The position numbers were made by a program, and so were the translations under genes. Of a stretch of DNA of 64,000 nt, positions 59,173 through 64,000 are shown in pieces. Within the stretch, counting starts at the first letter, position 1. The number at the start of each line of letters is the position of its first letter. Origin of the DNA: an uncultured Verrucomicrobiae bacterium (GTDB lineage: Bacteria; Verrucomicrobiota; Verrucomicrobiia; Chthoniobacterales; UBA10450); assembly GCA_963772365.1 (NCBI GenBank), contig CAVYXA010000001.1:32001-96000 (forward strand), given 5' to 3'. The notes under the pieces are model-generated. The model worked only from the letters and a program-made list of their open reading frames with translations, ran no database searches and was not told the DNA's origin.

Positions 59173-60411
59173 ATGAGCACAAACCTGATCTCCAGCGGCA
59201 CGACGGCGCGCGAGAAAATTAATTTACGCACGCCGGACGTGATGGCGGCCGTGCAGGAACAGGTCGAATCCCATTATCGCAGCGACATCGTCGATAAAAT
59301 CCGGCGGGCCGGCGGAATTATTTCGGTAGGAAATACCACTGTGCGGCTGGCGAAACAATTCGGCTTTTGCTACGGCGTCGAGCGCGCCATCGATCTCGCC
59401 TATGCCGCGCGCAAGGTGTTCAAGGATCGCCGGCTCTTCATTGTCGGCGAAATCATTCACAATCCGGAAGTCAACCAGCAGATCGCCGCGCTCGGTATCA
59501 AGAATCTCACTGGAAAAAACAAAGAGGCTGATATCTCCGATCTCGGCCCAGATGATGTCGTCATCGTGCCGGCGTTCGGGACGGAGTTGGCGATCCAGCG
59601 ACAAATCAAAGATCGCGGCTGCCAGATTGTCGATACTACCTGCGGCGACGTGATGAGCGTCTGGAAACGGGTTCGCAAGTATGCCAGCGAATCGGCTACT
59701 TCCATCATTCACGGCAAAGCCGAACACGAAGAGACCAAAGCCACCAGCTCGCGCGCTCTCGGCGACGGCAATGGACATTATCTCGTCGTGCTCACTCTGG
59801 CCGAGACCGATTACGTTTGCGATTACATCCGGCACGGCGGGGATAAGCATGCGTTTCTGGAGAAATTCAAAGGCGCCTACTCGGCGGGATTCGATCCCGA
59901 TATCCACCTCCAAACTGTCGGCGTAGCCAATCAAACCACCATGTTGCGCGGCGAGACCGAGGAAGTGCAGCGAAGAGTCCGGAAAGCAGTTGTCGATCGT
60001 GACGGCCCCGAGCTAGCCCAAAAGAATTTCCGATTCTTCGACACCATCTGCGGCGCAACACAGGAACGTCAGGATGCGTTGCGCGAGCTTCTTAACGTGT
60101 CGATGGATTTGCTCCTGGTCGTCGGCGGTTACAACAGCTCCAACACATCGCATCTGGCCGAGATGGGCGAAGAGAAATTGCCCACCTATTTTGTACTCAA
60201 TGCCTCACGACTCGTTTCCGCGAACGAGATCAAGCATTACGATCTACACGAGAAACGCGAAGTCGTTTCCCATTTCTGGCTCCCGCCCGGCCCAGCCGTC
60301 ATTGGCATCACCGCCGGCGCATCCTGCCCGAACAATCTGATTGAAGAAACATTGATCCGCCTCTTCGAGCTACGCGGTATTTCGCGCGACCAACTTGATC
60401 TCGCCGCGTAA
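59173..60411 (+). CDS. ispH: 4-hydroxy-3-methylbut-2-enyl diphosphate reductase
   Basis: GFCYGVERA, IIHNP, DTTC, HEET, NQTT, DTICGATQERQ, GGYNSSNT, TAGASCP. Confidence 0.96.
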   Translation: MSTNLISSGTTAREKINLRTPDVMAAVQEQVESHYRSDIVDKIRRAGGIISVGNTTVRLAKQFGFCYGVERAIDLAYAARKVFKDRRLFIVGEIIHNPEVNQQIAALGIKNLTGKNKEADISDLGPDDVVIVPAFGTELAIQRQIKDRGCQIVDTTCGDVMSVWKRVRKYASESATSIIHGKAEHEETKATSSRALGDGNGHYLVVLTLAETDYVCDYIRHGGDKHAFLEKFKGAYSAGFDPDIHLQTVGVANQTTMLRGETEEVQRRVRKAVVDRDGPELAQKNFRFFDTICGATQERQDALRELLNVSMDLLLVVGGYNSSNTSHLAEMGEEKLPTYFVLNASRLVSANEIKHYDLHEKREVVSHFWLPPGPAVIGITAGASCPNNLIEETLIRLFELRGISRDQLDLAA

Positions 60412-60493
60412 AATCGCCTACAGCAGTTTATTTGAAGGATATTGGCATAAATCTGCGTTGCCGCGTTGATGTGCGCTGATTATTCTAAATGAC

Positions 60494-60697
60494 ATGAACT
60501 TGCGCTTGGTAGTGGAGCATGATCCGGAGAGCAAGCGCTGGGCGGCTTTCTTTCCGGAACTGCCTGGGTGCGCTTCGGCAGGTGATACCGAGCAAGAAGC
60601 GATCGACAACGCAAAGGAGGCGCTCGAACTCTGGTTTGAACCCACTCCGGCTGCGGTTCCTCCCGGCGCTAAGGTCGTGGAAGTTGCTCTTACGTGA
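60494..60697 (+). CDS. hicB: HicB family antitoxin (short form)
   Basis: FPELPGCASAGDTEQEAIDNAKEAL. Confidence 0.9.
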   Translation: MNLRLVVEHDPESKRWAAFFPELPGCASAGDTEQEAIDNAKEALELWFEPTPAAVPPGAKVVEVALT

Positions 60698-60912
60698 GCG
60701 AGCGGTTTCCAGTGCGCAGCGCTCGTGACGTGATTCGGGTGTTGCGCAAGCATGGTTTCGCAATGCTCCGCCAGCGCGGTAGCCATCAGAAATGGCGACA
60801 TCCCAACGGGCGGCAAGTAATCGTCGCCGTGCACGGCAACAAACCGATTCCGATCGGTACATTAAAAAGTATCATCGAAGGAAGCGGATTAACCGTGGAG
60901 CACTTTCGATAG
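60694..60912 (+). CDS. hicA: HicA family toxin
   Basis: LRKHGF..RQRGSH..VAVHG..GTLKSI. Confidence 0.92.
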   Translation: MSERFPVRSARDVIRVLRKHGFAMLRQRGSHQKWRHPNGRQVIVAVHGNKPIPIGTLKSIIEGSGLTVEHFR

Positions 60913-60916
60913 AGGC

Positions 60917-61025
60917 GGCATGACCGCTGGCGCATCCTGTCCCGAATAACCTGATTGAAGAAACATTGATCCGCCTCTTCGAATTACGCGGCATTTCGCG
61001 CGAACAACTCGGACTCGCGGCGTAG
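60917..61025 (+). repeat. Diverged direct copy of the ispH 3' end (60304-60411)
   Basis: 14 substitutions and 1 inserted base over 108 nt by manual alignment; ends in TAG. Confidence 0.92.
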
Positions 61026-61074: not shown

Positions 61075-61466
61075 GCGCCTCAGCATTTCTGAAATCGCGA
61101 TGACTGCGATAACGCTGCGGACGACGAGTATAACGAGAACGTATTCCCGCCTCAGCATTTCTGAAATCGCGATGACTGCGATTTTGCCCTTGGACGGCGC
61201 TGGCGAGCACTCTCTGCCGCCTCAGCATTTCTGAAATCGCGATGACTGCGATTGCTGCCGCGCCTGCTACCTGGCCGATACTACTTATCCGCCTCAGCAT
61301 TTCTGAAATCGCGATGACTGCGATGATACTTCCAAGATCGATAACGATCAATGGCATGTCCGCCTCAGCATTTCTGAAATCGCGATGACTGCGATCCGGC
61401 AGCCAAACAGTGGGCTACAACGATTTCGCGCCGCCTCAGCATTTCTGAAATCGCGATGACTGCGAT
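61075..61466 (-). CRISPR. CRISPR array, 6 x 36-nt repeats, 5 spacers of 34-36 nt
   Basis: Repeat on minus strand ATCGCAGTCATCGCGATTTCAGAAATGCTGAGGCGG at 61075, 61147, 61217, 61289, 61360, 61431; only the cas-distal copy has a mismatch. Confidence 0.97.
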
Positions 61467-61644
61467 CCACCCTGTCAATAACCGGCAACTTCCCGTGGTG
61501 TCGTTAGGCGAATATCGAGCGCACTCTCGAAATGCGATGGCCTATCGCGGTCAAAAGTCATTTGCGAGTCGGAGGACGCAACGAATTTCAGAGGTAATCG
61601 CAGCCGCGCGAGCGCTGCCGCAGTAGCGCCACAGCAATCTCGCG

Positions 61645-61738
61645 CTCGCTAGTCTCGTTTATCGCGATTTCAAAGAGCTGCTTCTCCAATGGCGGAAGAG
61701 AAGTGGTCGGTGGCAGAGGCCTTTCGGCTTTGTTTGCC
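61645..61738 (-). ncRNA. Predicted tracrRNA
   Basis: Anti-repeat CAGCUCUUUGAAAUCGCGAU (61661-61680), hairpin CUUCUC/GAGAAG with loop CCGCC matching repeat end GGCGG, 5' GGCA/UGCC stem with GCCGAAAGGC hairpin. Confidence 0.8.
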
Positions 61739-61744
61739 AAGCTA

Positions 61745-61773
61745 ATTAAAGAGCGCGTTAGAACGATTGGCAA
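61745..61773 (-). promoter_or_regulatory. Sigma70-like promoter for predicted tracrRNA
   Basis: TTGCCA-N17-TTTAAT; predicted start G at 61738 is the first base of the 5' stem. Confidence 0.6.
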
Positions 61774-61804
61774 ATTCGAAATCAACTCCGAAAGCTTTCG
61801 CGAG

Positions 61805-62095
61805 CTAGATCACAGTGACGCGCGTTCTGACTGTGTAAGGTAAACCCATCGCTTCGATGATCAGGCTTGCGTCATTTGAGCTTGGTCCAAGCGAGACGAA
61901 CAAAACCTGGTCTTCATCATGATTCAAGATTGGGTGAAGAGATGTTTTCAGATTTGCCATCCTCAGATCGTCGAGCGGACATTCGAAAACAGAGTACTGC
62001 AAGCGCACGCCAAAGCCTTCGAGGACACGCGCGACCTGTCGCAAACGTTTCGGGTTGCAAATATCGTAACTGACGAGATAGCGGAGCCGGCTCAT
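61805..62095 (-). CDS. cas2: CRISPR-associated endonuclease Cas2
   Basis: YLVSYDICNPKRL, RLQYSVFEC; ATGA overlap with cas1. Confidence 0.95.
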   Translation of the reverse strand: MSRLRYLVSYDICNPKRLRQVARVLEGFGVRLQYSVFECPLDDLRMANLKTSLHPILNHDEDQVLFVSLGPSSNDASLIIEAMGLPYTVRTRVTVI

Positions 62096-63903
62096 CGCGT
62101 TGTGAAACCGTGGTAAGCGATAGCCTCGCCGCGCACGAAGCGCCAAAGTTGTCGCGCCTGCACTTCGAGCATTCGTCGATAAGCCATCTTGTAGACGAAC
62201 TGCGGATGACTTACTTCCGCGTCGAGCCGGCGGAACCATGCCTCCCAAAATGCTTTTCGACCTCGCTCGTTTAGAAAAGTGCCGCTGGCGCTGCGAATGA
62301 AATCGTCTGCGCCGACTTCGCCGCGATTCACGAGTGAGATGGCGACGCTGTCTGCGATGAGGGGACGAAATTCTTCCATCAAATCCAGCGCGAGCGCGGG
62401 CCGGCCGTAGCGCGGCTGATGCATGAAGCCGAGAAACGGATCGAGTCCCACTGCGTCGCAGACGCCGGTGAGTTCTTTGGCCAGCATGGAGTAGCCTAAC
62501 GAGAGCAACGCGTTCGCGGGATCGCGAGGCGGACGGCGATTGCGTCCACGCCAGTCGAATTTCCACGATTCTTTCAACATCGATTCGAACTGTTCGAAGT
62601 AGAGCGCGGCGGCCGTGCCTTCGATGCCGAGCAATTCCGTCATGTCATGGGCCGACTCCGTGGCGTCGCGAAAACCGGCAAGCAATTGCAAGACGCGATC
62701 AGGCACATCGCCATTGCGCATGAGCATGGTGCGTTGATTGTGAATTTTCGCGCGCACCACTTCACGCGCGAGTTGCAGACGCACGCCGGGGAGTTCGAAG
62801 AGACGATATTGTCCGCGGCGCGCGTCCACGCCACTCACCGGCAAGGCGCGCAACGTCCCGAGAAAACGCCCCGCTGGGCTAAAGTAAGCGACGTCGATTC
62901 CGAGCTCGAGGCACGTCTCGATCGCCTGCGCGGTTAATTGAATCGCGCCATAACAGTAAATCGCGCGTAGTTGATGCCCAGGCAGCTTGCGCGCTTCCGC
63001 GCCCTTCACCGAGACGACAAACTGATCGCCGCGCTGTCCAATTTGCGCTCCCGGAGTTTGCACCACCAACACTTCGCCGTCGTCGTGCTCCGGGCGCGGC
63101 GGCTGTAGAGTATGGGCCTTCTTTCCAGATTCGGCTGCGAATTCGAGCGCTTCGAAAATCTGCTCGCGCACATGATCCTCCGCTGGCGCGCTGAACCCGA
63201 AGCGAAGTTGATCATCCGGCTTCGCGGCTTTGCCCGCTCGCGCCCACCACCAGGACTCGTTAGGCAAACAGATCGGATACGCCGAACAATACAGACATCG
63301 CGGATCGTTTTTCAGCGGAGGCGGGCACTTGCCACTCGCCGCGACTGCGCGCGTTTGCTCGATGGTAGTTAGAACTTTCGCAAACAACTCTTCACTCAAT
63401 TCCAGTGGCACACGCCGCTTCTCCGCTGCGTAATAAATTGCGGCGCGCGTGGCGTTGATACCGATCTCGCGCAGCAAGAGCGCATGCGCGGCTACCTGAA
63501 TGGCATCGGGCTCTTTCGCAACACGCTCGCCGTTGTTATCGCGTCGCGCCGACCCTTTTTTGTAATCGACAATCTCCGCGCCGTCCGGACCGCCCTCGAT
63601 GAGATCGACGACGCTAATCAATCCCAGCGACGCGCTTTCCAACCGCAAACTTCGCAGCGTCGCGCCTTCAGGAAGATTTTCGCCGAGCGCTTTCAGTTTC
63701 TCTTCATCGACACGCGAGGCGCGATCGACATTGCGATGCGCATGCGACCCTTCGATCGTATCGGCGTTCTCCTGAAAAATATTCTCGACCCACTGATAAT
63801 AAAAAAGCCGCGGGCAATAGATGAAATTATGCAACCGCCGCACCGGCATCGGCGGCTGCGATTCAAGCCCGCCTTGCGTTTGCACCGGCGCATCGATTGA
63901 CAT
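62092..63903 (-). CDS. cas1: Cas4-Cas1 fusion
   Basis: Cas4: YCPR, DLIE..DYKKG, RCLYCSAYPIC; Cas1: LGIEG, RRPPRDPANALLS, GFMH, LALDLMEEFRP; start could be the later MPVRRL. Confidence 0.95.
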   Translation of the reverse strand: MSIDAPVQTQGGLESQPPMPVRRLHNFIYCPRLFYYQWVENIFQENADTIEGSHAHRNVDRASRVDEEKLKALGENLPEGATLRSLRLESASLGLISVVDLIEGGPDGAEIVDYKKGSARRDNNGERVAKEPDAIQVAAHALLLREIGINATRAAIYYAAEKRRVPLELSEELFAKVLTTIEQTRAVAASGKCPPPLKNDPRCLYCSAYPICLPNESWWWARAGKAAKPDDQLRFGFSAPAEDHVREQIFEALEFAAESGKKAHTLQPPRPEHDDGEVLVVQTPGAQIGQRGDQFVVSVKGAEARKLPGHQLRAIYCYGAIQLTAQAIETCLELGIDVAYFSPAGRFLGTLRALPVSGVDARRGQYRLFELPGVRLQLAREVVRAKIHNQRTMLMRNGDVPDRVLQLLAGFRDATESAHDMTELLGIEGTAAALYFEQFESMLKESWKFDWRGRNRRPPRDPANALLSLGYSMLAKELTGVCDAVGLDPFLGFMHQPRYGRPALALDLMEEFRPLIADSVAISLVNRGEVGADDFIRSASGTFLNERGRKAFWEAWFRRLDAEVSHPQFVYKMAYRRMLEVQARQLWRFVRGEAIAYHGFTTR

Positions 63904-63921
63904 AGCTAACTATCTTAGCTA
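63903..63921. promoter_or_regulatory. Inverted repeat, candidate antitoxin operator
   Basis: TAGCTAA-CTATC-TTAGCTA just upstream of the Phd-like start. Confidence 0.5.
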
Positions 63922-63932
63922 ATCTCGTCGCT

Positions 63933-64000
63933 GTGACGCAAGCGACCATTCATCAGGCAAAGACGCACCTCTCCAAACTCATTCGCAAAGCGCTCGACGG
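63933..64000 (+). CDS. Phd/YefM family antitoxin, truncated by window edge
   Basis: GTG start, MTQATIHQAKTHLSKLIRKALDG is the typical prevent-host-death N-terminus. Confidence 0.85.
   Translation, partial: MTQATIHQAKTHLSKLIRKALD

Follow-up and report, generated by a model that had tools for sequence, protein, structure and literature searches.

A CRISPR locus of an uncultured Verrucomicrobiae bacterium, at positions 61,075 to 63,903 of a 64,000-nt stretch of DNA, holds a Cas4-Cas1 fusion, Cas2 and a short array, and raises the question of which effector these genes serve. The stretch (the window, G000:C1:32001-96000) comes from a genome of 3.35 Mb in 6 contigs that is 90% complete. A reading made from the letters of the window alone (the sequence-only reading) had taken the locus for a divergent verrucomicrobial Cas12b-related system and proposed a search for the effector along the rest of the contig. 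That search, carried past the window edge, found cas12b 1.4 kb upstream of cas4-cas1 and in the same orientation. Judged by its sequence, the locus is type V-B (Cas12b): next to the cas genes stands one large effector, a member of the Cas12b family. Its genes and flanks are listed below; C1 coordinates are in contig numbering, all others in window numbering.

59173..60411, plus strand: ispH, the left host flank
61075..61466, minus strand: CRISPR array with six 36-nt repeats and 5 spacers, leader end at 61466
61805..62095, minus strand: cas2, 96 aa (TIGR01573, 45.9 bits against a cut-off of 24.5; PF09827)
62092..63903, minus strand: cas4-cas1 fusion, 603 aa (NF049935, 595 bits against a cut-off of 560; PF01930 and PF01867)
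C1:96782-97291, minus strand, outside the window: ORF6N-domain gene, between the cas4-cas1 region and cas12b
C1:97300-101968, minus strand, outside the window: cas12b, its ~1,554 aa divided over frames of 871 and 682 aa
C1:102186-103052, plus strand, beyond the window after cas12b: ku, the right host flank

The effector and its adaptation genes

The two overlapping minus-strand frames of cas12b span positions 1-705 and 708-1252 of the Cas12b profile. Both exceed the curated cut-off of NF033949 (229.6 and 385.5 bits against 150), and the halves also match PF22202 and PF22126. Read through the break with an X, the protein has 1,554 aa and shares 61-65% identity with eight full-length relatives of 1,531-1,589 aa (P0001-P0008). 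The catalytic residues of the split RuvC domain are present (D802, E1213 and D1372), and this D/E/D set is invariant in 73/73 aligned Cas12b proteins. Structures predicted for the two halves, with mean predicted local distance difference test (pLDDT) values of 83.7 and 86.9, found their best fold matches among solved Cas12b structures, at modest template modelling (TM) scores of 0.23-0.44. Among solved structures, ChCas12b of Candidatus Hydrogenedentes (1,496 aa; PDB 9KLN-9KLQ) is the best match by sequence and by the fold of the C-terminal half, although the structural alignment gives just ~19-20% identity; AacCas12b and BthCas12b of Alicyclobacillus and Bacillus (PDB 5U30, 5WTI) are fold matches that are ~420 aa shorter than the protein here. 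A tree built with FastTree sets the protein apart, in a subclade of about 10 sequences (support 1.0 for the four in the tree) that have the RuvC-I motif DFGLHAD and bear no family name in the sources we consulted. At residues 800-810, P0001-P0008 and the locus under study (L001) read VDFGLHADSW where most relatives read DLGQRxAGA; the catalytic Asp is retained.

The adaptation genes by themselves are less telling. The ATG of cas2 overlaps the stop codon of cas4-cas1, the best model for the fusion is cas4g_cas1g, matched above its cut-off, and Cas4-Cas1 is equally near to I-G (37%) and to Alicyclobacillus V-B (36%). Automatic annotation, going by this Cas4-Cas1, would label the locus an adaptation module of type I-G whose array is an orphan. 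The Cas4g-Cas1g match is not diagnostic for I-G, because the fusion is common to V-B as well, and we give that label practically no chance of being right: it is refuted by the adjacent, co-oriented cas12b, and the predicted trans-activating CRISPR RNA (tracrRNA) covaries with the repeat. The sequence-only reading had named csb1, csb2 or cas3 just outside the window as the genes that would speak for I-G, and no I-G genes were found in the genome. At its 90% completeness it yielded no csb1/cas7g, in a search that had no positive control for csb1, no Cas3 above cut-off, and no match to the Cereibacter I-G proteins Cas3, Cas8, Cas7 and Cas5-6.

We surveyed the best 80 of 153 Cas4-Cas1 relatives in GTDB (related loci, given L numbers), the majority of the relatives being labelled Verrucomicrobiota. 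Of these closest loci, 73/80 have an adjoining cas12b and 0/80 have I-G genes; among the seven without cas12b, five stop at a contig edge and two look decayed. In a quick tree, Cas1 nests among 63 cas12b-linked relatives (Shimodaira-Hasegawa-like approximate likelihood ratio test, SH-aLRT, 97); I-G and Alicyclobacillus are represented in it by a single row each, on long branches, and the deep I-G/V-B split is not settled by it. The adjoining cas12b, the absence of I-G genes from the search results and the cas12b beside 73/80 of the closest loci support the Cas12b-related assignment. Four related loci (L068, L090, L105 and L106) lie on contigs labelled Bifidobacteriaceae or Hyphomicrobiales while their Cas1 nests within Verrucomicrobiota loci, which reflects either mis-binning or transfer.

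Parts of this picture are already known, namely the naming of relatives as Cas12b by NCBI and the existence of a large Cas12b1 clade with its own adaptation module. The NCBI-annotated Cas12b proteins, from metagenome-assembled genomes (MAGs) of Verrucomicrobia, Opitutaceae, Lentisphaerae and Omnitrophota, are 35-42% identical to the N-terminal half here and, where checked, go with the same repeat/tracrRNA family. Strecker 2019 and Shmakov 2015 reportedly cover Opitutaceae/Omnitrophica Cas12b and may already hold the repeat type and a tracrRNA prediction. The passages on Cas12b in the literature we searched give no account of this repeat/tracrRNA family and no tests of this Cas12b subclade, and the relevant sections of Teng 2018 (PMC6255809) and of a 2026 review (PMC13605374) do not mention Opitutaceae. 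By description, the locus resembles the clade of large (~1,500 aa) Cas12b1 reported by Altae-Tran et al. (2023, PMC10691335), whose adaptation module is distinct, in its length of ~1,554 aa, its Cas4-Cas1 fusion with Cas2, and its membership by Cas12b hidden Markov model; the section of that paper on the clade describes no repeat, tracrRNA or effector exchange. The same source gives V-B2 effectors as 700-800 aa; this protein and its relatives lie outside that range, and the locus is therefore not V-B2. The largest Cas12b cited there has 1,888 aa, and three related loci have frames near or above this (L085, 1,918 codons; L086, 1,823; L087, 1,748; stop-to-stop lengths). The V-B locus of an Alicyclobacillus dauci plasmid (L135, NZ_CP104065.1) has the same order of cas12b, cas4-cas1, cas2 and array, with 24% identity in Cas12b, 43% in the Cas1 domain and a repeat ending in GTGGCAC; both its cas12b and its cas4-cas1 are split.

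Repeat, leader and predicted guide RNA

On the minus strand, a non-coding stretch of 338 bp comes after cas4-cas1 and cas2, and then the array of six 36-nt repeats, so that the order read earlier from the sequence (cas4-cas1, cas2, anti-repeat RNA, leader, array) was found as claimed. The elements of the non-coding DNA are:

61745..61773, minus strand: TTGCCA-17-TTTAAT, which resembles a promoter and precedes the predicted tracrRNA, picked by eye; a consensus scan found 0 sites
61656..61738, minus strand: predicted tracrRNA, comprising stem 1, ACCGACCA linker, stem 2, CCGCC loop and anti-repeat; ends predicted
61703-61698 with 61686-61681, minus strand: stem 2, 6 bp, enclosing the CCGCC loop at 61695-61691
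61680-61661, minus strand: anti-repeat, whose duplex with the repeat has an energy of -25.5 kcal/mol
61467..61655, minus strand: leader with phased motifs
61649-61642 and 61615-61608, minus strand: leader motifs GCGAGCGC and GCGCTCGC, an inverted pair
61520-61516, minus strand: third leader motif, GCTCG

The repeat, ATCGCAGTCATCGCGATTTCAGAAATGCTGAGGCGG, is present in six copies, of which five are identical and the last terminates in C, not G; the spacers are 35, 35, 36, 34 and 36 nt long. The genome holds one cas1 and one array with this repeat, and no further copy of the repeat was found elsewhere in it with up to 6 mismatches allowed. Its folding energy of -7.7 kcal/mol is no better than that of shuffles (z -0.26), which bears out the earlier statement that it has no strong internal hairpin. 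It also lacks an ATTGAA end, as stated there. It had also been called unusual. This holds against class 1 repeats only; within its own family the repeat is ordinary, as 51/55 distinct related repeats end in TGAGGCGG. The Alicyclobacillus V-B repeat likewise lacks ATTGAA, and the I-G repeat we compared ends in ATTGAAGC. A likeness to the Opitutaceae Cas12b repeat, proposed in the sequence-only reading, fits the Opitutaceae MAG loci L131-L133, which have the same ..TGAGGCGG repeat type.

Alignment of the DNA between cas2 and the array across related loci revealed a fixed core, in which a short stem 1 and ACCGACCA precede a variable 6-mer and TCCGCCATTG separates that 6-mer from its complement; the anti-repeat comes last. 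We examined covariation in 55 distinct loci, out of 66 with this core and at least 2 repeats. Stem 2 is paired in 54-55/55 loci at each position, with many double-sided changes, and its Watson-Crick fraction is 0.96 against 0.56 in partner shuffles (maximum 0.65), in a kind of test that kinship inflates. The CCGCC loop is a second element, of 5 nt, complementary to the repeat's 3' GGCGG, and it pairs with the repeat in 55/55 loci; in L070 and L126 a compensatory C-G to T-A change matches a GACGG repeat end with a CCGTC loop. Repeat position -6, an A here, is unpaired in all 55 loci, and the first four anti-repeat pairs beyond it covary (0.83 against 0.70). The anti-repeat proposed between cas2 and the array is thus real by its duplex energy and by covariation, and the same two lines of evidence bear out two repeat:anti-repeat duplexes, one of them a 5-bp pseudoknot with the repeat 3' end. 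The tracrRNA and the guide architecture as a whole are predicted. A scan of the window with Rfam gave 0 matches, and the tracrRNA region had no match among plasmids.

A described parallel is the ChCas12b guide, which the structural report presents as stem 1, linker, 6-bp stem 2, a 5-bp duplex 2 on the last five bases of the repeat, and duplex 1 (PMC12204704). The guide predicted here has the same order of elements. Because of this shared order, with a 5-bp duplex on the repeat end, the AGGCGG repeat end is likely, by analogy, the handle for the V-B pseudoknot. It is also the norm of the family. The two differ in their repeat ends and in the unpaired A at -6 here. Moreover, stem 3, which that report describes in both the ChCas12b and the AacCas12b guides, gives way in our prediction to a 4-nt ATTG linker between loop and stem, in the place taken in ChCas12b by stem 3 and linker L6. 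An additional hairpin on stem 1 has a GAAA loop at this locus and a TTCG loop in L015 and L102. Seven Verrucomicrobiaceae loci (L115, L116, L118-L121 and L128) have a two-part anti-repeat, whose first pairs are followed by an insertion of ~25 nt.

The leader is patterned too. GCTCG lies at -52 to -54 from the first repeat in 50/61 related leaders, a second GCTCG at -138 to -143 in 44/61, and an inverted CGAG[C/T] near -175. This fixed spacing suggests that the motifs are likely DNA signals for spacer integration by Cas4-Cas1-Cas2, in analogy to the inverted repeats of I-F leaders, which are described in a preprint whose relevant part does not mention V-B (bioRxiv 2023.05.26.542337).

The break in cas12b

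Alignment with P0007 and other relatives places the break between RuvC-I and RuvC-II, near C1:99,350, where a short run of C seems to hold one base too many. In the protein collection, the 871-aa piece clusters with no other sequence. All eight full-length relatives align straight through this point with identity undiminished on either side. As a background, we tested 52 other gene places covered by long open reading frames from related loci. Four were flagged, and for three of them it was confirmed that the assembly divides the gene between reading frames: dnaJ (C1:244899-246029), uvrC (C1:1675482-1677052) and pilT (C3:145280-146802), some of them more than once; the fourth flag, in an aminotransferase gene, was not confirmed. 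Residual indels are therefore likely in this assembly, which bears on any pseudogene call in it, and because housekeeping genes are frameshifted in the same genome the single frameshift in cas12b is probably an assembly error.

Should cas12b be truly broken in the cell, interference would be dead, spacer acquisition might remain, and toxin-antitoxin (TA) cassettes would be filling a decaying island. The frameshift itself, the short array, the TA cassettes on both flanks and the frequency of broken copies among relatives, the A. dauci plasmid included, all fit such decay. It is nonetheless the less probable account: there is no second lesion, the halves are equally identical to relatives (0.59-0.63 and 0.62-0.69), five of six repeats are identical, other genes of the assembly carry frameshifts, and TA cassettes lie between direct repeats throughout the genome (4/5 hicA genes). 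Far more improbable is a Cas12b that is naturally split or made by programmed frameshifting, in which two polypeptides or one recoded form would make up the nuclease. Each half is predicted to fold alone with high confidence, but 8/8 of the closest full-length relatives are single-frame, other split copies break elsewhere (P0016 ends at 1,126 aa), and the break has neither a clear ribosome-binding site nor a slippery run.

The locus of 9.8 kb lies between ispH and ku, which adjoin each other in two of five genomes searched (G017 and G020), marking it as an insertion. Very probably it is a complete V-B locus whose Cas12b, guided by CRISPR RNA (crRNA) and the predicted tracrRNA, would cut foreign double-stranded DNA, with the frameshift a likely error of assembly. 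Several observations pull the other way. The RuvC-I context VDFGLHAD is atypical, occurring in 4/73 aligned rows where most have DLG-Q/x-R. The array, with 5 spacers, is short, and searches of IMG/VR, INPHARED and the genome itself yielded no spacer target: exact 21-24-nt seeds matched IMG/VR viral contigs for 0/5 spacers, INPHARED phages gave no target match to the array, and among the genome and related loci the array itself was the sole match. The tracrRNA ends, the promoter and the function of the leader are predictions; the fold of the whole tracrRNA region is only slightly more stable than that of shuffles (z -1.35), and the support for loop-repeat pairing comes from two loci because the pairs are almost invariant. 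Finally, cas12b is split or partial in 11/65 GTDB loci uncut by a contig end (5/10 in the long-contig MFD set, 6/55 in the others), and only 4/150 sampled relatives (1/90 in the family) hold Cas12b, so loss of the gene is common.

In a working V-B system of this kind, Cas4-Cas1 and Cas2 would insert spacers at the leader end, directed by the phased GCTCG motifs. The tracrRNA would be transcribed from about 61738, and its anti-repeat would pair with the repeat; the pseudoknot would then close between the CCGCC loop and the repeat's 3' GGCGG, leaving A at -6 unpaired. Cas12b proteins studied so far use a 5', T-rich protospacer adjacent motif (PAM) and cleave double-stranded DNA with a stagger. 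By analogy, Cas12b loaded with crRNA and the predicted tracrRNA would cut protospacer DNA beside a 5' PAM.

Apparent exchange of cas12b across the family

How closely the effector belongs with its neighbors was assessed in 64 non-identical loci, each with a full Cas4-Cas1 and a Cas12b no shorter than 1,350 aa; L001 was kept with its X, and A. dauci was left out along with any split, cut or duplicate locus. Distances between Cas1 proteins correlate with those of Cas2 (Mantel r 0.90, n=63), Cas4 (0.76, n=42), tracrRNA (0.68, n=59) and repeat (0.64, n=55). With Cas12b the correlation is 0.07 (p 0.16), and tracrRNA and repeat likewise do not correlate with Cas12b. In 55/64 loci, the locus nearest by Cas1 carries a Cas12b less than 50% identical. 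The proteins form 18 Cas12b clusters at 50% identity, and the four multi-member Cas1 clusters (90%) contain 2, 11, 6 and 3 of these. Host family predicts the Cas1 grouping and not the Cas12b grouping.

The locus under study is itself an example. L001 and L045 have 92% identity in Cas1, near-identical tracrRNA and repeat, and 28% identity in Cas12b; their DNA matches from cas4 to the array and not in cas12b, and both carry the same 38-nt hairpin immediately ahead of cas12b (the top match among 108 upstream regions, score 46 against 25). L009, in turn, is 64% identical to L001 in Cas12b and 70% in Cas1. An approximately unbiased (AU) test on 19 rows rejects a single Cas12b clade for L001, L045, L052 and P0001 (p 6e-99), for a Cas1 group (L001, L045 and L052) picked after the trees were seen. 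L001 thus seems to pair the Cas12b of one lineage, that of P0001-P0008, with the adaptation genes and guide of another. L045 adjoins a different host gene, so the island has moved as well. With guide and adaptation genes nearly fixed across this widespread family, cas12b appears to behave as an exchangeable part in front of them.

A mismatch of this kind could also arise if Cas12b evolved fast or if the adaptation-guide module, not the effector gene, did the moving. Median identity is indeed lower for effectors (0.36) than for Cas1 (0.82), and 75/86 close-Cas1 pairs have no upstream DNA in common. Yet rate alone fails to explain pairs with 70-76% identity in Cas12b and 69-75% in Cas1 beside others with 26% in Cas12b and 99% in Cas1. 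Cas1 tracks host families and Cas12b does not, and a non-matching cas12b is flanked by common DNA on both sides in L062/L063/L073, L075/L077 and L001/L045. We therefore hold either of these explanations to be unlikely as the general cause, although for most close-Cas1 pairs a moving module cannot be told from exchange. The case for exchange of the effector is tempered by three points: 98-99% identity between Cas1 proteins corresponds to 82-93% in DNA, so that closeness is overstated; upstream DNA is common to only 11/86 close-Cas1/distant-Cas12b pairs (0/683 distant pairs); and the loci were chosen partly by Cas1 likeness.

In situ effector shuffling is a named trend, given as 1-2 events per 100 adaptation modules in the relevant part of Makarova et al. 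(2025, PMC12669027). The example published there is Cas9 of II-C, which has in common with our loci a close cas1 and a distant effector. The rate in this Cas12b family looks far above that average, in a comparison that is rough because the thresholds were the same but the clustering differed and our sample was picked partly by Cas1. A shared guide is a plausible enabler of such exchange, since guide interchange works among Cas12b orthologues that Teng et al. (2019, PMC6476878) describe as highly conserved; those were close relatives, whereas here 18 Cas12b clusters below 50% identity have one guide family in common.

TA cassettes and other cargo genes surround the locus:

60491..60912, plus strand: hicB-hicA pair directly beyond the array, between the ispH 3' end and its copy
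60917-61024: 88% copy of the ispH 3' end, on the far side of hicB-hicA
63906..64000 and beyond (C1:95906-96598 in full), plus strand: Phd/YefM antitoxin and PIN (VapC-like) toxin pair, antisense, crossing the window edge
C1:96687-96761: 75-bp, 88% copy of the cas4-cas1 5' end, beyond the Phd-PIN pair

Genome-wide, small TA cassettes lie between direct repeats of 75-200 bp and 82-95% identity, for example at C1:92304-93024, C1:95821-96761, C1:1169636-1170630, C1:1211098-1211771, C3:111565-112353, C1:1746483-1747517 and C3:7435-8488. Besides the hicA genes, 3/13 PIN genes of the genome are so placed, and at both TA sites examined the direct repeat is a gene end (ispH 3', cas4 5'). We considered the 75-bp cas4 copy as a scar of effector exchange and rejected it: it resembles this lineage's own cas4, and the idea is undercut by the TA habit and by the same copy-plus-insert layout in L049/L074, L067 and L119. 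In these loci the duplicated cas4 5' end is a recurrent slot, with hicAB or MazF-like genes where identified. More than 200 bp separate cas12b from cas4 in 21/78 relatives and cas1 from cas2 in 13/87; where tested, the gaps hold HicB-like, MNT-HEPN, MazF, ORF6N or four-helix-bundle genes, and these inserts look like passengers. Four-helix-bundle (PF05635) genes between cas1 and cas2 occur in L015, L060-L063, L084, L085, L096, L110 and L114.

Taken singly, this locus adds another V-B system to those known, with a cas12b that may be unusable in its assembled form. What deserves notice is the shared guide without stem 3 and the apparent rate of nuclease exchange; the family view yields a compact guide design, backed by covariation, for a large group of database-named Cas12b proteins on which the papers we consulted give no tests. 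We speculate that one tracrRNA/repeat scaffold lacking stem 3, with ~40 nt before the anti-repeat, serves about 18 Cas12b lineages less than 50% identical, that the nuclease gene is swapped between a conserved 5' anchor (MNRIYQG) and the start of cas4 at a rate far above average, and that this exchange likely serves escape from anti-CRISPRs; whether all three hold together we judge to be evenly balanced. If they do, one short guide would run dozens of Cas12b nucleases. The family thus offers a concrete system for asking how class 2 effectors swap while guide and adaptation genes persist.

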